Assembly: GCA_001791045.1 (NCBI GenBank)
Contig: MGDT01000004.1
Coordinates: forward strand, 136,767 to 200,766
Reading direction: 5' to 3'
DNA from: Candidatus Uhrbacteria bacterium RIFCSPHIGHO2_01_FULL_63_20
Lineage (GTDB): Bacteria; Patescibacteriota; Patescibacteriia; UBA9934; GWF2-40-263
Length of the DNA: 64,000 nt
The notes beneath the pieces were generated by a model. The model did not search any database. It was not told the origin of the DNA and was given only the letters and a program-made list of their open reading frames with translations. This document shows, piece after piece, positions 9,260 to 16,698 of this stretch; the first letter of the stretch is position 1, and every line of letters begins with the position of its first letter. Both the position numbers and the translations under genes were made by a program.

Positions 9260-9346
9260 GGGCAGGTGGCGAAACTGGCAGACGCAGAGGTCTTAAACAC
9301 CTTTGAGGGAAACCTCGTGTGGGTTCGACTCCCACCCTGCCCACCA
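9260..9346 (+). tRNA. tRNA-Leu (anticodon TAA), CCA encoded
   Basis: Acceptor GGGCAGG/CCTGCCC, anticodon loop CTTAAAC, long variable arm, T-arm GTGGG-TTCGACT-CCCAC. Confidence 0.9.
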
Positions 9347-9350
9347 AAAA

Positions 9351-9379
9351 CCCGTCTCTTGCCAAAGAGACGGGTTTTT
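9351..9379 (+). terminator. intrinsic terminator after tRNA-Leu(TAA)
   Basis: CCCGTCTCT-tgccaa-AGAGACGGG followed by TTTTT. Confidence 0.75.
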
Positions 9380-9546
9380 GCTATGGTCAACTTGATCCGG
9401 GCAACGAAGCATGCCTGGTGCCGCTGGACCCAACCCCCGACGCGATCCCCCCCCGACGGTCCCCCCACCGTCTCTCGTGTCAGGACCCCTGGGTCCTCTT
9501 TTTATTGCTTGCCCCAGGAAGCCCCTCCATCCATAATGAGGGCGAT

Positions 9547-10581
9547 ATGATCGAACGGGATGTCCAGGACGAAGATGACCGGCTCGTTTCGAGCGCCGAA
9601 CAGGCGCCGGAGCGGGAATTCGAAGTGGGACTCAGGCCGGGGACGCTCGATGATTTCGTGGGCCAGCAAGGGGTGAAGGAAAACCTGCGCGTGCTGCTCG
9701 AAGCCGCCAAAGGACGGAACGAGCCGGTGGAGCACGTGCTCTTGTACGGCAATCCCGGGCTCGGGAAGACCACGCTCGCGCACGTGATCGCGCGCGAGAT
9801 GGGCGGGCAGATCCGCGTGACCAGCGGCCCGGCGCTCGAGCGCGTGGGCGACCTCGCGGCCATCCTCTCGAACCTCGGGCGCGGCGACATCCTGTTCGTG
9901 GACGAGATCCATCGCATGAACAAGACGATCGAGGAGGTGCTCTACCCGGCCATGGAGGACTACGCCCTCGACCTTGTGGTCGGCAAAGGGCCGACCGCTC
10001 GCACGCTGCGCTTGGCGCTCGAAAAATTCACGCTCATCGGCGCCACCACGCGGCTTTCCCTGCTCTCTTCGCCGCTGCGCGACCGCTTCGGCGCCACGTT
10101 CCATCTCAACTTCTACGAACAATCCGACATCGCCACGATCATCGCCCGCAGCGCCAAGCTCCTCGACGTCCCGACGGACGAACCCGCCGTCCGGCTCCTA
10201 AGCGAACGCTCCCGTCGGACACCCCGCGTCGCGAACCGCCTCCTCCGCCGCGTCCGCGACTTCGCCCAAGTTCGCGCGCAAGGCGACATCACGGAGCCGG
10301 TCGCGAAAGATGCGCTCATCATGCTCGACGTCGACGAATTCGGCCTCGACCGCGTGGACCGGTTCATCCTCCAGACCATCGTCGACAAGTTCCAGGGCGG
10401 TCCGGTGGGCCTCTCCACCCTCGCGGCCGCGACCCAGGAGGAAAGCGACACGCTCGAGGAGGTGCACGAGCCGTATCTCATCCAGCTGGGCCTGCTTGAG
10501 CGCACCGCGCGCGGGCGCATGGCCACGGGCGAGGCCTACCGCCACCTGGGCCGGCCCGTGCCGGAGCAACGGGCTTTGTGA
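9547..10581 (+). CDS. ruvB: Holliday junction branch-migration helicase RuvB
   Basis: Walker A GNPGLGKTT, Walker B ILFVDEIH, sensor GATTR, and the typical C-terminal winged helix. Start at the ATG at 9547 (MIERD). Confidence 0.95.
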   Translation: MIERDVQDEDDRLVSSAEQAPEREFEVGLRPGTLDDFVGQQGVKENLRVLLEAAKGRNEPVEHVLLYGNPGLGKTTLAHVIAREMGGQIRVTSGPALERVGDLAAILSNLGRGDILFVDEIHRMNKTIEEVLYPAMEDYALDLVVGKGPTARTLRLALEKFTLIGATTRLSLLSSPLRDRFGATFHLNFYEQSDIATIIARSAKLLDVPTDEPAVRLLSERSRRTPRVANRLLRRVRDFAQVRAQGDITEPVAKDALIMLDVDEFGLDRVDRFILQTIVDKFQGGPVGLSTLAAATQEESDTLEEVHEPYLIQLGLLERTARGRMATGEAYRHLGRPVPEQRAL

Positions 10582-10587
10582 AACAAG

Positions 10588-10881
10588 TCAGGACGAACGC
10601 CGGTCAGCCGTCCTATACGCGTCGCTACGGTGACAAATGATGAAAATAAAGACCTGATGGCCCTCGATCCGATAGACGACGCGATAGTCGCCCACGCGAA
10701 GCTTCCAATACCCTTTCAATGACCGGCGCAGCGGGACCCCGAACAGGTCAGGCTGCGTCATGAGTTTCTGCTCGATAGCCCGTCTGATCCGTTCCTTGTC
10801 GCGGCTTCCGAGCGATGGGATGTCCTCTTTCACCACCGCAGGGTGGTAGGAAACGGCGTACGCCAAACTGATCAGGCCCAC
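10588..10881 (-). CDS. RelE/ParE-family type II toxin
   Basis: The ~95-aa sequence ...LKGYWKLRVGDYRVVYRIEGHQVFIFIICHRSDAY matches the RelE/StbE signature. It overlaps the upstream antitoxin by 10 nt. Confidence 0.75.
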   Translation of the reverse strand: MGLISLAYAVSYHPAVVKEDIPSLGSRDKERIRRAIEQKLMTQPDLFGVPLRRSLKGYWKLRVGDYRVVYRIEGHQVFIFIICHRSDAYRTADRRSS

Positions 10882-11093
10882 GCCGCGTCGTGGGCGACGA
10901 ACTTGGCCTTTTTGCCGTCACGTGCCTGCGCCAAAGCGCCGAGCGCCATGTCCTCCTCTATTTCCAATGCGAACCGCACCAAATCGAGCGCTTTGGTGGA
11001 CACGGTCGTCTGATCCCGCTTCGCAAGCCGAGTGAGGACGTTCCCGACGTCGTCAGGCACGGAAAGGCTGATGCGCTGTTTGAGGGTTGGCAT
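10872..11093 (-). CDS. ribbon-helix-helix antitoxin
   Basis: MPTLKQRISLSVPDDVGNVLTRLAK... fits an RHH beta-strand plus two helices. It sits immediately upstream of, and overlaps, the RelE-like gene. Confidence 0.65.
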   Translation of the reverse strand: MPTLKQRISLSVPDDVGNVLTRLAKRDQTTVSTKALDLVRFALEIEEDMALGALAQARDGKKAKFVAHDAAWA

Positions 11094-11129
11094 AGATACA
11101 AGGAGTGTAACACTGGTGCGGCACACTGG

Positions 11130-12053
11130 TCAACTCGCCGACATCAAAATGGCACGAGTCAACTCAAACGCATCCGCATGCGCGCACGCTCCCAAGTACG
11201 AGGTGAGATTTTCCTGCTTTCCCAGTCTCAACATCCGTTTTTTCGTCTTCGTCCGCAGAATCGTCGCCTGCGGCAGGAGGACATATCCAAGAAAGTCGAT
11301 TCCTTGCTTCCATGTCCGAACGATGATCTTATTCGGATGAAGTCGGAGTTTCAAATGCTCGCCGAGAAACGCGTCAGCTTGTTCCGCCAATTGGAATGCC
11401 CGTTCTTTCGAGGAAGCAAGCATCACGAAATCATCGCAATAACGGAGGCAGTGGTGAACGCGCAGGCCGTGCTTCACGAACCAATCCAGCTCGTGCAGGT
11501 ATACGTTCGCGAATAGCTGGCTGGTGAGATTACCAAGAGGGATGCCCTTGCCTGGCCGTGTCGAGAAACTACCAATGATTTCCCGAAGCAGGTCCATGAG
11601 GCGCCTGTCATGGATCCGACGCCGGAGCAGGCCGATGAGGATCCCATGTTCCACCGAATCAAAGAACTTCCTCACGTCGCATTTCACGGCATAGACGGTC
11701 TTCCTACCGTTCCGGCTCGCTTGCCGGAGGAACAGGCGCAACCGTCGGACGGCCGCATGCGTCCCCTTCCCGATGCGGCAGGAATAGCTGTCATGGATGA
11801 ACTGCCGCTCGAATGACGGTTCGATGACGTTCACGAGCGCCTGGTGGACGACGCGGTCACGGACGTTTGCCTTGTGAATCGTGCGCTGTTTCGGGTCGAA
11901 AACGACAAAGCGGTGATACGCGCCGTGCCGATAGCGGCCCGCGAGCAGGTCATCGCGCAATGCGAACAGGTTGTCCTCCAGATTCCGCTCGAATACCATG
12001 ACGTCAGGCCGCGACCGCTTCCCTTTCCGGAATTTTTCCCACGCGACGACCAA
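11130..12053 (-). CDS. DGR-type reverse transcriptase (5' end unresolved)
   Basis: RT motifs including IPLGNLTSQLFANVYL (DGR-typical (I/L)GxxxSQ) and the catalytic box YCDDFV. The listed start is a TTG inside the conserved N-terminal block (SFEN-L-VVAWEKFRKGKRS). The frame stays open upstream without a start codon. Confidence 0.9.
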   Translation of the reverse strand: MVVAWEKFRKGKRSRPDVMVFERNLEDNLFALRDDLLAGRYRHGAYHRFVVFDPKQRTIHKANVRDRVVHQALVNVIEPSFERQFIHDSYSCRIGKGTHAAVRRLRLFLRQASRNGRKTVYAVKCDVRKFFDSVEHGILIGLLRRRIHDRRLMDLLREIIGSFSTRPGKGIPLGNLTSQLFANVYLHELDWFVKHGLRVHHCLRYCDDFVMLASSKERAFQLAEQADAFLGEHLKLRLHPNKIIVRTWKQGIDFLGYVLLPQATILRTKTKKRMLRLGKQENLTSYLGACAHADAFELTRAILMSAS

Positions 12054-12133
12054 ATTCTCGAACGAACATAACCGATCGAAACTATGCGCCCCATAAGCCC
12101 CCCCCCCGACGGAATCCCGAACTCCATCGCGAG

Positions 12134-12487
12134 TTGGCGCGGACTCCTGCTGACATCCCTCTCGTCCATACGCTTTACGCCGCCTACGCGGCGTGGCATG
12201 ACATCTTGTTGAAATTTCCGAAGGCGGAACGGTACTCGCTGGGGGAAACGATTTCGAGACGCTTGCTCGAAACGATAGAACTCATCCTCGGAGCCGCTTC
12301 AACCGCCGATGCTGCGGAAAAGCTGAAACACCTGCGTGAAGCGAGCGCGAAGCTCGATACGCTCAAGCTCCTAGTCCGCCTCGCGAAAGATTGCCGCTGC
12401 CTTCCGAATCAGCACTATCTCGACATGGAATCCCGCTTGCATGAAGCGGGCAAGATGATCGGTGGATGGCTTAAATCCATCGGATAA
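12134..12487 (+). CDS. avd: Avd-like four-helix-bundle protein (23S-IVS protein family)
   Basis: 117-aa helical ORF. The blocks FPKAERYSLGETISRRLLETIELI, LREASAKLDTLKLLVRLAKD and LHEAGKMIGGWLKSI match the four-helix-bundle family to which DGR Avd belongs. TTG start. It lies on the strand opposite to RT, TR and VR. Confidence 0.7.
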   Translation: MARTPADIPLVHTLYAAYAAWHDILLKFPKAERYSLGETISRRLLETIELILGAASTADAAEKLKHLREASAKLDTLKLLVRLAKDCRCLPNQHYLDMESRLHEAGKMIGGWLKSIG

Positions 12488-12513
12488 GAAAGAGCGCCGA
12501 TTGGCGCTCTTTC
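12488..12513. other. 11-bp perfect hairpin between avd and TR
   Basis: GAAAGAGCGCC-gatt-GGCGCTCTTTC. It could terminate avd (+) and/or form part of the TR-RNA 3' spacer structure (-). Confidence 0.6.
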
Positions 12514-12525
12514 TCGTTGGGTACT

Positions 12526-12655
12526 CCCGAGGAACACCGGCACCGCCCAGTTGTCGTTCTCGTTGTCTGCGTGATTCGCATTCAGCTTCACCTGGCGATC
12601 GTCGAGGTTGAAGTTGACGTTCGGCGCGTTCGACCAGGGGTCGTTGTCGGGAACC
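12526..12655 (-). repeat. DGR template repeat (TR), 130 bp
   Basis: Aligns without gaps to 12977-13106. In the coding sense it is rich in AAC codons (VPDNDPWSNAPNVNFNLDDRQVKLNANHADNENDNWAVPVFLG). Confidence 0.9.
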
Positions 12656-12970
12656 AATGTTGCGCTGTCGCCTTCTGTTTCACCGGACCCAGACGCATCC
12701 GGATCCTGTATTTTATGCGGGACACAATGGGTACAACCCCCTTGTCCCAAGCAACAGCACGGAGTGCCCTTCATTCGCATCGTGCGCTCCACAACACCTT
12801 GATGTTTGGATTCTGACGATCTGTGCGAAGTCGGACGATCCGGGGACGCACATCCGTAAACGTGCGTTCACGACCCGAATCTATAGATCAATATAACAAA
12901 AAGAGCCCGGCGGACCAAGGACTAAGAGTCCAAGATCCACCGAGCTCCAAGGGGCCAAGCGCCCAGTTCC

Positions 12971-13927
12971 TCACTCCCCGAGGAACACCGGCACCGCCCA
13001 GCGGTCGTGCTCGCCGTCCGCGAGAGCCGCAGACAGCCACACCCGGCGATCGCCGAGGCTGAAGCCGACGTCCGGCGCGCGCGACCAGGGGTCGCTGTCG
13101 GGAACCGTACACTGCAGGCCCGGAATCCAGAAGCCAAAGCGCTTCTTGTAGTCCGTGGCCTTGATGCGCTCCGGGTGCTGCGCGGCTACGAACAGCAACG
13201 CGACGCCTGGGGAACGCTTGGGGTCGCGGACGTTCACGGGCTTCTTGCCCACGTTGGCGTCAAGCTTCACGCGGCGCCAGCGTAGGGTGAAGGGTTCGAA
13301 CGCTTCGGCTCCTTCCAGCAAGCGCAGTTTCGCGGGGTCGGTGTTGAGGCCGTCCCAGCGGTAGCTGTCGTGCTGGCCGTCCTTGGTCCATTCCCAGGCG
13401 AACTCGAAGGTTTCCTGGAGGGTGGCGAGGGTCGCGTCGAGCACCACCACGACCTCGGGGTCGTCGGTGAACTCGGGCGGCGTCTCGCTTCCGACGAAGT
13501 GGAACCGGTCGAAGTCGATGCCTTTGTCCTTGCAGCGGGCCTTGAAGGCCTCGAGCTGGACGAGGGCGGCGTTGAACACGCCGTGGACGAGGTCGGTGCG
13601 GAAGGCGGCGTGCTTGCGCATGGCCTTCAGCATGTCATCGAACACCGAGCGGTGCTCGGGTTTGAGACAGAGCTCCGCCTCTTCCGGCGTCATGCCGGAA
13701 CGGCCGAAGCAATCCGCGAACTCCTGCACCTGCGTGAAGCGCATCTGGCTGGTGAGACTGGCCATGAGCCGATCCCCTTTCGTTGCCGCGCGGACCAATC
13801 CTTCCCGCCACCATGGCAGGTCAGACCAATCCTTTGTTGAGAGCGGCCATTCGGGCCCTTCGATAAACTCAGGGCGCAAAATACCGTTCTCAACGGTGGC
13901 GATTAAATGTTCGACGCGGAAAATCAT
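12971..13927 (-). CDS. DGR variable (target) protein, C-terminal CLec-type variable region
   Basis: VR occupies residues up to 1 codon before the stop. The invariant W/AVPVF scaffold is typical of DGR CLec-fold ends. The start is uncertain; see findings. Confidence 0.8.
   Translation of the reverse strand: MIFRVEHLIATVENGILRPEFIEGPEWPLSTKDWSDLPWWREGLVRAATKGDRLMASLTSQMRFTQVQEFADCFGRSGMTPEEAELCLKPEHRSVFDDMLKAMRKHAAFRTDLVHGVFNAALVQLEAFKARCKDKGIDFDRFHFVGSETPPEFTDDPEVVVVLDATLATLQETFEFAWEWTKDGQHDSYRWDGLNTDPAKLRLLEGAEAFEPFTLRWRRVKLDANVGKKPVNVRDPKRSPGVALLFVAAQHPERIKATDYKKRFGFWIPGLQCTVPDSDPWSRAPDVGFSLGDRRVWLSAALADGEHDRWAVPVFLGE
12977..13106 (-). repeat. DGR variable repeat (VR), 130 bp, last 43 codons of the target gene
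   Basis: It differs from TR at 22 positions, and every one is a T on the + strand, meaning an A in the coding-sense TR. VR encodes VPDSDPWSRAPDVGFSLGDRRVWLSAALADGEHDRWAVPVFLG. Confidence 0.9.
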
Positions 13928-13951
13928 ACCACTTTTTTGCGGTTTTGTCAA
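13923..13951 (-). promoter_or_regulatory. consensus promoter (TTGACA-17-TATGAT with TGG extension)
   Basis: Minus strand: TTGACA (13951-13946), AAACCGCAAAAAAGTGG spacer, TATGAT (13928-13923). The -10 element overlaps the ATG at 13927. Confidence 0.5.
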
Positions 13952-14026
13952 GAGGATATACGTCATTATTCCGCTATAATCAGCCATTTTTGAATAATCG
14001 ACATGTAATGCTACAATGCGTCCGTT

Positions 14027-14287
14027 ATGCCCGTCGCGGTCCTCTTACTCCCCTATCTCCTATTCCTCCTCCTGTACGCGGTGTATGGGGGATTCGTGCT
14101 CTACCACCTCACCCGCTTCGGGATCGCCGGAAAGGGGTTGTACCTGACCGCTGGCGGGTTCGTCATCGGCACCACGATCCTCCTGCTCGTCTCGGCCGTG
14201 GGACTCGGTTCCTTCGATTGGTCCGTCCCGATGTCTGTGGACTTCCTGAACCTGCCGTCGACCAGCGCGTTCCCCTCCGCCCTATGA
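14027..14287 (+). CDS. small membrane protein (86 aa, 2-3 TM)
   Basis: Hydrophobic ORF MPVAVLLLPYLLFLLLYAVYGGFVLY.... Its stop overlaps the next start (ATGA). A TTGAAT-N-TACAAT promoter lies upstream (~13990-14017). Confidence 0.5.
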   Translation: MPVAVLLLPYLLFLLLYAVYGGFVLYHLTRFGIAGKGLYLTAGGFVIGTTILLLVSAVGLGSFDWSVPMSVDFLNLPSTSAFPSAL

Positions 14288-14862
14288 TGCGCCTCGACCA
14301 ACTCCCCAACCAGGCGCGCGACGAGAAGATCGTCCTCCTGCTGCGCCGCCACTGGTTCACGGTACTCCCCATCCTGTTCATGTTCCTGGGGCTCTCGGCG
14401 GCCCCGCTCGTGGCCGTGATCCTGTTCCCCGAACGCCTCACGGACCTGCTCGCGCATCCGACCGCGGGCCCCCTCATCGCGCTGTGCGCCTCGGCGTATT
14501 ATCTTGGCGTGTGGCTGTTCACCTGCTTCGAATTCGTGGACTACTACCTCGACGTGTGGATCATCACCAACGAACGGGTGATCAACATCGAGCAGGTCGG
14601 GCTGTTCAACCGCACCGTGAGCGAGCTGCATCTGGCCAACATCCAGGACGTGACGAGCGAGGTGAAAGGGATCGTGAAGACGCTGCTCGACTACGGCGAC
14701 ATGCACGTGCAATCCTCGGCCGAGAAGGTGCGGTTCCACTTCAAGGACATCCCGCGTCCCGACCAGGTGAAGCAACAGGTGCTCGACCTCGTGCATGACG
14801 ACCAGGGCCGCCACGGGACCGGAACCCCTGCTCCGACCCCGATGCAAAAACCGACGGTCTAG
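14284..14862 (+). CDS. membrane protein with bacterial PH (bPH_2/YdbT-like) domain
   Basis: RRHWFTVL, then two TM helices, then DVWIITNERVINIEQVGLFNRTVSELHLANIQDV...DYGDMHVQS. This is the typical bPH_2 topology. The 305-aa track ORF is an artefactual upstream extension. Confidence 0.6.
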   Translation: MMRLDQLPNQARDEKIVLLLRRHWFTVLPILFMFLGLSAAPLVAVILFPERLTDLLAHPTAGPLIALCASAYYLGVWLFTCFEFVDYYLDVWIITNERVINIEQVGLFNRTVSELHLANIQDVTSEVKGIVKTLLDYGDMHVQSSAEKVRFHFKDIPRPDQVKQQVLDLVHDDQGRHGTGTPAPTPMQKPTV

Positions 14863-14877
14863 CCGTCGGTTTTCGAT

Positions 14878-16698
14878 TTACTTCCACCGCTTCAGGATGG
14901 CGATGTTCGTGTAGAAGTAGTGGAGGATCTGCTCCCAGCCCTGCCCGCGGTTGGCCATGCACAGCGCCTCGGTGGCGCTCATGCCGATGCCGTGGCCCCA
15001 CAGATTGTACCCCTTTTCCTTGTCGCACGGGCAGGCCACGCCTTTCACCCACGGGACGTCGCCGCCCCACACCTCGCCCCAGTCATACGTGCGTCCGGCG
15101 GAACGGGAGAAGTACGGGGTGATGGCCGTGCGCCCTTCGTAGGTGACCACCTGCCCGCGCGTTTCCTCGACGCTTCTCACGATACGCGGCGAGTTCGCCT
15201 CCTGGTCGTACCCGCGATACACCTGGTCGTCGGCGTACCCGGTGATGTGGAAGAACTCGGGCCCGCGTTTGGTGCCGCGCTCGAAGTGGTAGGTGGCGTA
15301 CGTGCGCGCCGCGGTCACGAGCGCCTTCTGGTACTCCATGTGGCTCACGTTGCTCGTCTCGCCCAGGCCCTTCAGGTACCACTCCATGGGCAGCTCGTTG
15401 ATGAGCCAGGTGCGGGTCTTCGCGTCATTGTAGCGCAGCTCAAGCACGTTGCGGTACCGGTTGTACGGCCGGTCGGCGCCTCGGTTGCGGCGGTCCCAGT
15501 TCTCCACGGTGCAAACGGCGTTGGGCTCGTTGGGAACGAAGCGCAGGAAGTGCGGCGTTTTCTCGAACCCATTGCCCCGGTCGAACCAGTAGCGGCTCTG
15601 CTTATAGAGCGCGGTCACCGGCTTCCCGGCTGGCAGTTCCGCGAGCAGCGCGCCGTCCCCGCCCATGAGCTTCCACGCGGTCTCGCAGCTCACCTTCACC
15701 TCGTTGTTGGTCTCCCCGTCCACGATCAGGATCCCGACGCGCAGCATGGGCTCCTGCATGGGGAACGTTTCCGGAATTTCCTGCACGATCGGCACATTGA
15801 ACGCCTCGGGAGAGCCGCTCGTGACCTCGACCGGGATGTCCACCCAATAATCCGGCACCGCTTGGTCGTCCACCACGAGCGCGTATTTCACCACGTGCGT
15901 CCCGGCGGCCCGGGGGGCATTGAACGTGAAGGTGAAGTACTCGAGCGCGCCCGGGGCCACGTCCGCGCCCGCGTTGGCCACCAGCACCGAGGTGGAGAGC
16001 CACGAGCCGTTCATGGTCTCGTTGCGCACGCTCGCGGCCGACACCGACGGCACGCGCAATTCGCGGCGCTTCCAGGCAAGCGTCCCCGTGTTCTTGATCC
16101 CGACCGTGTAGGTGACGGCATCCCCGCCCTTGCTCACCAGCACTTTCTTCTGCGACCGGATGAGGGTGAGGGCGGAAAGGCCGGTGGGGCTTGAAGGGCT
16201 TTGGGTCGGGGGAACGACCAGTAGTTCGGCTTTGGGCGTTTGCGCGACCACGATCTTCACGGTAAAGAGCCCGCCCGGGATCCACGCCACGTCCTCGGCC
16301 GCGAGGTTGAACGTTTCCTGATACTCGCCAGTGACCTTGGGCGCCTTCAGCTTGAAGCTGATCGTGCCGGTCTCTCCCGCGCGCGCGGTCTGTTCCCTCA
16401 TGACGGAAGGCTGCGTCGACGATTTCCACGATAGGTCCTGGAACAGGCTCGCGCGGTATTTGGGACCGTAGGTGTACACCGAAACGTACCCAGGACCCAT
16501 GTTCGCCCACGAGGCGGTGCCGATGTTCTTGAAGGTGATGGTGAAGTCCTTGGTCTCCCCGGGCGCGAGCGTGAGCTTGCCCGAGCCGGAGCTCGACACC
16601 TGGAGCGCTTCATACCCCTTGAGCGGGGCCGCCAAGGCCGTGGTCGGAGCCGACACGGCGACGAACGCCCCCAAGAGGACGGCGACGACGATCCGCAT
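14878..16698 (-). CDS. secreted SpoIID/LytB-domain protein with N-terminal Ig-like repeats
   Basis: Signal peptide MRIVVAVLLGAFVAVSAPTTALA. Repeated beta-rich modules follow. The C-terminal SpoIID block reads YLKGLGE..EYQKALVTAARTYA...DDQVYRGY...ITPYFSRSAGRT...HGIGMS. Confidence 0.85.
   Translation of the reverse strand: MRIVVAVLLGAFVAVSAPTTALAAPLKGYEALQVSSSGSGKLTLAPGETKDFTITFKNIGTASWANMGPGYVSVYTYGPKYRASLFQDLSWKSSTQPSVMREQTARAGETGTISFKLKAPKVTGEYQETFNLAAEDVAWIPGGLFTVKIVVAQTPKAELLVVPPTQSPSSPTGLSALTLIRSQKKVLVSKGGDAVTYTVGIKNTGTLAWKRRELRVPSVSAASVRNETMNGSWLSTSVLVANAGADVAPGALEYFTFTFNAPRAAGTHVVKYALVVDDQAVPDYWVDIPVEVTSGSPEAFNVPIVQEIPETFPMQEPMLRVGILIVDGETNNEVKVSCETAWKLMGGDGALLAELPAGKPVTALYKQSRYWFDRGNGFEKTPHFLRFVPNEPNAVCTVENWDRRNRGADRPYNRYRNVLELRYNDAKTRTWLINELPMEWYLKGLGETSNVSHMEYQKALVTAARTYATYHFERGTKRGPEFFHITGYADDQVYRGYDQEANSPRIVRSVEETRGQVVTYEGRTAITPYFSRSAGRTYDWGEVWGGDVPWVKGVACPCDKEKGYNLWGHGIGMSATEALCMANRGQGWEQILHYFYTNIAILKRWK

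Follow-up and report, generated by a model that had tools for sequence, protein, structure and literature searches.

A Patescibacteria diversity-generating retroelement with a conserved poly-G run at the head of its reverse transcriptase gene

Does the repeat pair that lies beside a reverse transcriptase (RT) gene in an Uhrbacteria genome belong to a diversity-generating retroelement (DGR), and is that element at work? The question is raised by a stretch of 64,000 nt from Candidatus Uhrbacteria bacterium RIFCSPHIGHO2_01_FULL_63_20 (assembly GCA_001791045.1, contig MGDT01000004.1, positions 136,767-200,766 of the forward strand). This whole stretch is called the window here, and the coordinates of all features are counted from its position 1 (Table 1). 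A preliminary description had proposed a complete DGR in it, with a template repeat (TR), a variable repeat (VR) at the end of a target gene, an RT and an Avd-like gene. The locus is very probably a chromosomal DGR of a lineage restricted to the Candidate Phyla Radiation (CPR), or Patescibacteria, with the gene order known as B3 and a mechanism of the Bordetella type.

The evidence that carries this reading begins with the repeats. A repeat finder run over positions 10000-16000 returned a single direct repeat, the pair 12526-12655 and 12977-13106, which is 130 nt long, ungapped and 83% identical, as had been described. Base-by-base comparison bore out the further claim that the two copies differ by 22 substitutions and that all of these fall on adenines of TR. 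Each of the 22 mismatches is located at a + strand T of TR, which is a coding-sense A, and the probability that 22 random mismatches would all land on the 32 T of 130 positions is P = 1.5e-17. On the + strand, the changes from TR to VR are 14 T>C, 5 T>G and 3 T>A; 22 of the 32 TR adenines are altered, with zero changes at other bases. The codon table gives 15 varied codons, 14 of them amino-acid-changing and one silent (GCA>GCG). The earlier count of 14 varied codons was therefore one too low, but its figure of ten Asn codons of TR among them was right (eight AAC and two AAT). The residues that VR encodes at the 14 changed codons (S/R/D/G/S/G/R/W/S/A/L/G/H/R) also agree with the list given before, as does the position of VR as the last 43 codons of the target, ending one codon (GAG) ahead of the stop (TGA, 12971-12973).

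The 3' ends of the repeats follow a pattern of their own. The last adenine substitution lies at 12551/12552, and from there the copies are identical to the end of the repeat, beyond which TR and VR diverge (GAGTGA in VR, AGTACC in TR). The shared 25-nt 3' end begins GGGCGGTGCCGGTGTTCCTCGGG, with divergence setting in at the stop codon, and a weak further match, ACTCCC, is seen past the 3' end if one 1-nt indel is permitted. By this sequence pattern the 25-nt segment resembles an initiation of mutagenic homing (IMH) site, and related elements have the same invariant end followed by divergence. No third TR/VR copy or further target was found in the window by an A>N-tolerant scan and by tblastn, which matched only TR and VR.

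The enzyme encoded next to the repeats is of the expected kind. The RT open reading frame (ORF) at 11130-12053 contains both IPLGNLTSQ and YCDDFV, the motifs by which it had first been recognized, and it matches Pfam RVT_1 (6.3e-20). Its best match in the PDB is 8ub7 (1e-42, 149.7 bits), a chain labelled only "Reverse transcriptase"; the entries 8ub7-8ube are, we take it, the Bordetella phage DGR RT-Avd structures. In the same comparison the best group II intron RT reaches 2.8e-24 and 89.2 bits, and the remaining matches (two chains deposited as "retron-type" RTs, and LtrA) score at most 64.5 bits. The outcome named beforehand as a refutation, that the RT would side with group II intron or retron enzymes, finds no support in these scores. 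Furthermore, LGNLTSQ fits [LIV]GxxxSQ, which Schillinger and Zingler took as the characteristic motif of DGR RTs (PMC3575424), and YCDD fits the YxDD box. Judged by its best solved relative and by this motif, the RT is of the DGR type. The Avd-like gene between RT and TR was likewise upheld by Pfam bAvd (6.4e-19, 68.9 bits against a cut-off of 40), but its inverted orientation, on the + strand, had been overlooked.

Do elements of this family diversify their targets? In eight related elements with their own TR/VR pairs, TR and VR differ at 10-21 adenines and at 0-1 other positions. Direct evidence of activity in sister elements comes from near-identical contigs of different samples. Locus L003 and the contig represented by L023 and L031 share 10.8 kb in which they differ by no more than 18 substitutions and one G of a homopolymer, and 18 of 18 substitutions are in VR at TR-adenine positions. 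Loci L034 and L038 differ by 13 substitutions, 12 of which are in VR at TR-adenine positions and one outside VR. In these sister elements TR stays constant and VR alone changes, at TR-adenine positions; joint change of TR and VR, which had been named as a sign of ordinary paralogous drift, was not what the related elements showed.

How would the element work? The steps of the Bordetella DGR cycle offer a model. In the window, a - strand RNA made of a structured leader of ~120 nt, the 130-nt TR and a terminal hairpin would be bound by the RT-Avd complex and copied into cDNA, with misincorporation opposite template adenines. The cDNA would then replace VR, guided by the invariant 25-nt G+C-rich 3' end common to TR and VR. 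Up to 32 adenine-templated positions would be rewritable, of which 22 are changed in the window copy, with 14 amino-acid changes. In the predicted structure of the 264-aa target, the rewritten residues would alternate along a C-terminal beta-hairpin and the adjoining loop. These biochemical steps, priming included, are carried over by analogy from the Bordetella system as summarized in PMC6602519.

The arrangement of the parts is one that is already known from the CPR. On the - strand, the target with its VR is followed by a 321-nt spacer, TR, avd on the opposite strand and RT. The core (TR 12655-12526, avd 12134-12487 on the + strand, RT from ~12097 to 11130) has the order of architecture B3, TR-(avd)-RT, which is reported to account for 90% of CPR DGRs (Wu et al., 2018; PMC5758913). 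The same study leaves the fold of most CPR VRs unclassified. A clade of cellular DGRs (clade 2) has been described as restricted to Patescibacteria (Roux et al., 2021; PMC8144416). Because of the B3 layout described in the former study and the Patescibacteria clade described in the latter, the element is regarded as typical of a known lineage. Its likeness to the CPR B3 DGRs of these studies extends to gene order, inverted avd, a small RT of ~300 aa, a chromosomal non-phage context, host phylum, groundwater origin, a C-terminal VR and a target without recognizable domain (compare the unclassified CPR VR classes UVR1-6 of PMC5758913), and no class-defining difference was found. It is thus an ordinary member of the DGR class with a layout typical of the ultra-small CPR bacteria, in keeping with the earlier remark that DGRs are a known class. 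The same order with inverted avd is present in every related locus that holds an RT, namely seven from a genome scan and nine more from a metagenome scan. The literature searched contained no mention of the G run, TR leader RNA or CTYGG array, described below, for B3-type DGRs.

The prototype of the class is the DGR of Bordetella phage BPP-1 (mtd-avd-TR-brt). It is carried by a phage, and the protein that it diversifies is a receptor-binding protein of the tail fibre with a C-type lectin (CLec) fold. In BPP-1, avd is on the same strand and upstream of TR, and avd sequence and a 140-nt spacer flank TR in the functional RNA. The window element shares with it the adenine-specific transfer from TR to VR, the RT family, the Avd partner, a VR that closes the target gene and has an invariant G+C-rich 3' end, and a hairpin downstream of VR. 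It differs in that avd is inverted and downstream of TR, in that TR has a dedicated non-coding structured leader and is followed by only ~40 nt and one hairpin, and in that the target lacks an export signal and a demonstrable lectin fold.

Table 1. Features of the retroelement locus (window coordinates).
Feature	Position	Strand	Remarks
DGR RT	11130-12097	-	listed ORF 11130-12053, TTG start, 307 aa; conserved coding reaches the G run
G10 homopolymer (C10 on + strand)	12098-12107	-	between avd start and conserved RT N-terminus
avd	12134-12487	+	117 aa, TTG start; opposite strand to target, TR and RT
13-bp G+C hairpin	12488-12513	T runs on both strands	12 nt after TR; abuts avd stop codon 12485-12487
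TR, template repeat	12526-12655	-	32 coding-sense adenines; 10 Asn codons (8 AAC, 2 AAT) at variable positions
Structured non-coding leader	12662-12781	-	directly 5' of TR
Long G+C-rich hairpin and U run	12896-12947 (hairpin 12903-12947)	-	29 nt after VR
CTYGG pentamer array, 5 copies	12908-12970	-	target 3' untranslated region; forms part of post-VR hairpin
Target (variable protein) gene	12971-13765	-	264 aa; Pfam-less family
VR, variable repeat	12977-13106	-	last 43 codons of target; ends one codon (GAG) before stop
IMH-like invariant G+C-rich VR 3' end	12977-13001	-	25 nt, identical to TR 12526-12550
Promoter-like site	13923-13951	-	TTGACA, 17 nt, TGn-TATGAT; 11/12 consensus match only

The segment upstream of TR appears to encode a structured RNA. 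In the predicted fold, a long-range helix of 11 bp (12750-12760 with 12662-12672) encloses a helix at 12743-12750/12718-12724, a variable hairpin at 12729-12741 and a hairpin at 12688-12703, with CATAAAATACAGGA (12704-12717) as a single-stranded stretch. When 12 distinct elements are aligned, the structure has 94% of its cells paired, and 16 compensatory pairs are counted as against 5.4 +/- 1.6 in shuffles (0/500 reach 16) and 2-6 after sliding the partners. In the long-range helix 100% of cells are paired and seven pairs covary; compensated versions of this helix occur in the window and in L012. The window leader sequence alone folds with z = -4.7, and the predicted structure is thus supported by covariation and by the fold z-score. 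No Rfam family matched anything in 10500-14500, the leader, the hairpins and the CTYGG array included. An alignment of eight sequences had suggested that the leader pairs over a long range with the TR 3' end (GUCCC/GGGAC, GGAAGGA/UCCUUCC). This was rejected, since compensatory changes are missing and both the window and L012 break the pairing; in the larger alignment, GGAGAAAACAC pairs with GUGUUUUCUUU within the leader. Three loci that the metagenome scan had returned with a 20-mer leader motif (L035, L037 and L041) were chance matches without DGR features.

Hairpins follow both repeats. The one after TR has a folding energy of -28.2 kcal/mol (z = -4.9) and is found at the same place in 8 of 8 aligned elements with different stem sequences, that is, with compensatory changes. 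Its place directly at the avd stop codon and the T runs on both strands suggest a bidirectional terminator, which likely ends both the TR RNA and the avd mRNA. The hairpin after VR folds with -44.6 kcal/mol (z = -4.6, 0/200 shuffles fold as well). A terminator scan matches its site, and equivalent hairpins follow the stop codon in relatives; it is probably the terminator of the target gene, the inverted repeat known from some DGRs on the downstream side of IMH, or both. Directly behind the stop codon, 18 of 22 target-homolog loci have the CTYGG array at a density of 5-10 copies per 100 nt, with or without an adjacent DGR, against a background of 0.45 per 100 nt (array loci include L001, L003, L005, L007-L009, L012-L018, L021, L023, L026 and L027). 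The four homolog loci that diverge most lack the array. The pentamer is not uniquely dense there, since other clusters in the window hold 4-6 per 100 nt, one of which was inspected and is coding sequence.

What is the protein that is being diversified? The target is 100% identical to A2856_00725 (P0001), a 264-aa protein of Candidatus Uhrbacteria RIFCSPHIGHO2_01_FULL_63_20. Because its 84 homologs (202-292 aa, most 255-275) align from Met75 of a 338-aa raw ORF, the gene is taken to be 12971-13765. The longer ORF that the preliminary description had assigned to it (12971-13927/13987; 318 or 338 aa) has to be given up, as its upstream starts are without homolog support. Gene callers give a 331-aa target in loci L045-L048. 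The extra 67-74 N-terminal residues (13766-13987, - strand) have no counterpart in any homolog and overlap the promoter-like site; if this promoter is real, ATG 13927 would lie inside its -10 hexamer and ATG 13987 upstream of it, in agreement with the start at 13765. The homologs come nearly all from Uhrbacteria or other Patescibacteria, and a profile search (E<=0.001) extends the family to 406 clusters at 50% identity. The target has no Pfam, NCBIfam or PADLOC match, and Pfam on ten distant or longer members was also empty. Neither a signal peptide nor a transmembrane segment was found in it (maximum 19-residue Kyte-Doolittle hydropathy 1.22).

An AlphaFold model of the target built with 74 sequences (predicted local distance difference test, pLDDT, 93; predicted template modelling score, pTM, 0.81) has an N-terminal helical part and an alpha/beta C-terminal part. 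The variable residues (224, 229, 232, 234, 236, 238, 241, 243, 245, 247, 248, 251, 253 and 255 in the 264-aa numbering) alternate in the model along a beta-hairpin, 229-236/241-248, and the loop that follows it, an alternation that would put the 14 variable residues on one face. A minimal CLec fold would agree with the order of secondary-structure elements (strand, two helices, five strands), an agreement that in itself amounts to no test. A second model, of the C-terminal 181 residues from a 22-sequence alignment, reached pLDDT 49.6 and was discarded.

The homologs of the target are not always accompanied by a DGR. About half of the target-homolog loci have no TR, avd or RT within 5-6 kb (L001/L010, L005/L022, L006, L007/L011, L008, L014, L016, L017, L018, L021, L024 and L025), and many of these homologs have diversified-looking C-termini. 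Such homologs may be relics, or else may be served remotely by a DGR in another part of the genome. Several copies of target homologs are present in some metagenome-assembled genomes, for instance JAUPWK01 (L017 and L018) and JAHJRN01 (L019, L026 and L027).

A further feature of the locus lies between the divergently oriented avd and RT genes. The G10 run there is the longest homopolymer in the window, and a run of G7-G10 is located at the same place in 13 of 13 distinct related elements examined (L003, L012, L013, L015, L023, L026, L027, L029, two in L031, L034, L043 and L044). Runs of G or C of at least 8 nt in the 448 kb of fetched loci are nearly all such avd-RT runs. Their length varies: the run is the sole difference between L027 and L044 over 6.2 kb (8 against 9), and the sole difference outside VR between L003 and L023 (8 against 9). 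The one other G/C run of at least 8 nt in the window is a C8 at 9447-9454; it is located between a PolX-like gene and the conserved RuvB-like part of the 9319-10581 ORF, in the 5' part of that ORF that homologs do not support.

How does the run bear on the start of RT? The RT N-terminus SFDRLCSFENL (LFEQICSxENL in relatives) lies upstream of TTG 12053, and homologs of RT cover the residues upstream of that codon. When run length was simulated in the window, the ATG homologous to the "MG[TI]SPG..." starts of relatives joined the RT frame at n = 9 or 12, whereas n = 8 or 11 brought in a second upstream ATG; of the length classes, only that of the observed n = 10 is out of frame. Because of the G10 run, the conserved N-terminus is therefore out of frame with the upstream ATGs. 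The same is true of L012 and of the second element in L031. Of the 69 closest homologs of RT, 29 have their ATG start on the downstream side of the run, 26 are called as ORFs in which the run is translated as Gly-Gly-Gly, and 14 are truncated calls, like the 289-aa database entry for the window RT, which begins at ATG 11999. The run is conserved and unstable in length, and it decides the reading frame in a subset of elements. The window copy may be switched off or weakly expressed, one G away from an intact frame.

Several results weigh against reading the window copy as a working element of the Bordetella type. No in-frame ATG, GTG or TTG is available for the RT N-terminus at n = 10, and the nearest usable starts, TTG 12053 and ATG 11999, would drop 13 to 31 conserved residues. 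The Avd protein scores 76.5 bits (1.7e-21) with NCBIfam DivGenRetAVD, just below the cut-off of 80. The ends of the TR RNA and the promoters are ones that we infer from sequence patterns. The VR, TR and G run of the window are identical in six assemblies including the window itself (the others are L039 and L045-L048), so that no diversification of this copy has been seen; these are consensus assemblies, which hide minority variants, from samples that are possibly related, and the comparison is a weak test of activity. As for the fold of the target, Foldseek with the model returned nothing significant from the PDB (best E 2.5, with human C-type lectins at E ~5-7 over ~40 columns) or from BFVD (best E 0.49), the target profile had 0 matches among PDB sequences at E<=10, and Pfam on 74 family members at E<=1 gave no lectin-type family (CLec, FGE-sulfatase, DUF1566).

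These points also bear on how the locus had been presented. Every defining component of a DGR was indeed found, but the word complete has to be qualified for an RT whose conserved N-terminus has no in-frame start at G10. To call the locus the clearest functional system in the window was an overstatement, with that N-terminus out of frame with every upstream ATG and a VR that is invariant in six assemblies. Because all structure and family comparisons were empty, a CLec fold is unproven. The CLec or formylglycine-generating enzyme-like (FGE-like) fold that had been anticipated is neither confirmed nor excluded by the predicted structure, Foldseek and the profiles, and the diversified scaffold may be other than a C-type lectin.

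Which other explanations could account for the locus? That TR and VR are ordinary paralogous repeats or a gene-conversion tract, beside an RT from a group II intron, retron or defence system, is so improbable as to be negligible. The best NCBIfam match of the RT is by name a group II intron RT/maturase (TIGR04416), and PADLOC lists many defence RT models; but its score of 149.8 is half of the cut-off of 300, the retron St85 model gives 39.1 against a cut-off of 235, and an Rfam search of 10500-14500 at E<=1 detects neither a group II intron nor a retron RNA. With the adenine-only pattern (P ~1e-17), the adjacent Avd gene and the sister loci in which VR alone changes at TR adenines, this explanation was rejected. 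A frozen relic, whose VR was diversified formerly and whose RT is now inactivated by a frameshift at the G run, is a more serious proposal, which we nonetheless consider unlikely. It would account for a run in the one length class without an in-frame upstream ATG, for gene callers that yield only an N-terminally truncated RT of 289 aa, and for the identical VR in six assemblies of the locus; the target homologs elsewhere that lack RT, avd and TR nearby show that loss or separation of the machinery is common. It does not sit well with catalytic motifs that are all intact, an RT frame that is open for >50 codons upstream, N-terminal residues that are still conserved at the amino-acid level, a TR that is still rich in AAC, and avd, leader RNA and hairpins that are all intact. 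Moreover, a slip of a single G would restore the frame. Because run length changes between otherwise identical contigs, the "off" state need not be permanent.

Is the G run then a switch? Homopolymer-based phase variation is known from poly-G tracts in ORFs of Neisseria and Campylobacter and from poly-C in Bordetella fim promoters (PMC1891110, PMC8355987). The avd-RT runs resemble these contingency genes in having 7-10 nt of G or C at a gene's 5' end or within a divergent promoter region, in differing by one unit between otherwise identical sequences and, in the window, in frame dependence; they differ in that the run is outside the RT ORF in many relatives, and the resemblance, drawn from sequences alone, is not one of membership. 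A reading that goes further would combine a stochastic on/off or dimmer switch for RT made of G7-G10, acting through frame in some elements and through promoter spacing in others and off in the window, with a dedicated leader and a scaffold that is possibly not of the CLec fold. This combined proposal is tentative, and its chances are modest. The alternative, to which we give somewhat under an even chance, is that the run is no switch at all: a fixed promoter or untranslated-region element, or a set of length errors, with RT starting at TTG 12053 or at a non-canonical codon. Several observations are in its favour. The run lies outside the ORF in the 29 homologs that start downstream of it. In the alignment read by eye, the run sits between a -35-like and a -10-like hexamer that are 15-19 nt apart. 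Illumina sequencing is known to miscall long G runs. Finally, some two thirds of the run-dependent homologs are in frame, which is what chance would give if two of three phases have a start. Sequencing error or a fixed element is harder to reconcile with two independent pairs that differ in run length only (over 6.2 kb, and over 10.8 kb outside VR), with a pure homopolymer kept in 13 distinct elements whose flanks have diverged, and with the 26 called RT ORFs that read through the run as Gly-Gly-Gly.

Some observations concern the neighbourhood of the element and of its relatives. In the window, a ParE-family toxin gene (97 aa; Pfam ParE_toxin 2.6e-09) is located directly downstream of RT, beside a candidate antitoxin of 84 aa that is small and ribbon-helix-helix-like (weak RHH_5; both genes within 10588-11126, - strand). 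The pair was not found beside related DGRs and is for this reason not counted as part of the element. One Patescibacteria contig, represented by L023 (143-1036, 7755-8750) and L031 (1029-2293, 8641-10007), has two DGR avd-RT pairs ~7 kb apart. Its second RT is 51% identical to the window RT, and each pair has its own G run (10 and 9). In L026, two target-like genes (3-257, 1018-1401) are located upstream of one TR, which matches the second, more divergent gene (29% identical to the window target) and not the first.

To conclude, as a DGR the element adds little, since DGRs with precisely this layout are already known to abound in the CPR, and the genome belongs to the groundwater data set in which CPR DGRs were first surveyed. 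Three of its features deserve the attention of specialists: the lineage-wide G run, the TR leader RNA and the target fold without a detectable neighbour. The leader RNA defines the likely functional template RNA of B3 elements, and we know of no studies to date on the RNA requirements of such elements. The compact target family, with no export signal and a confident model that has no structural neighbour, is a candidate for studying how a scaffold tolerates variation. To our knowledge, the regulation of DGRs is poorly understood, and in the literature searched we found no published link between DGRs and homopolymer runs. The conserved G run at the head of the RT gene offers a testable handle on this regulation. 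Its polymorphism between otherwise identical genomes suggests that hypermutation itself may be switched on and off. If this is true, the cell would phase-vary its own targeted hypermutation, and the copy assembled in the window would have been caught in its off phase.

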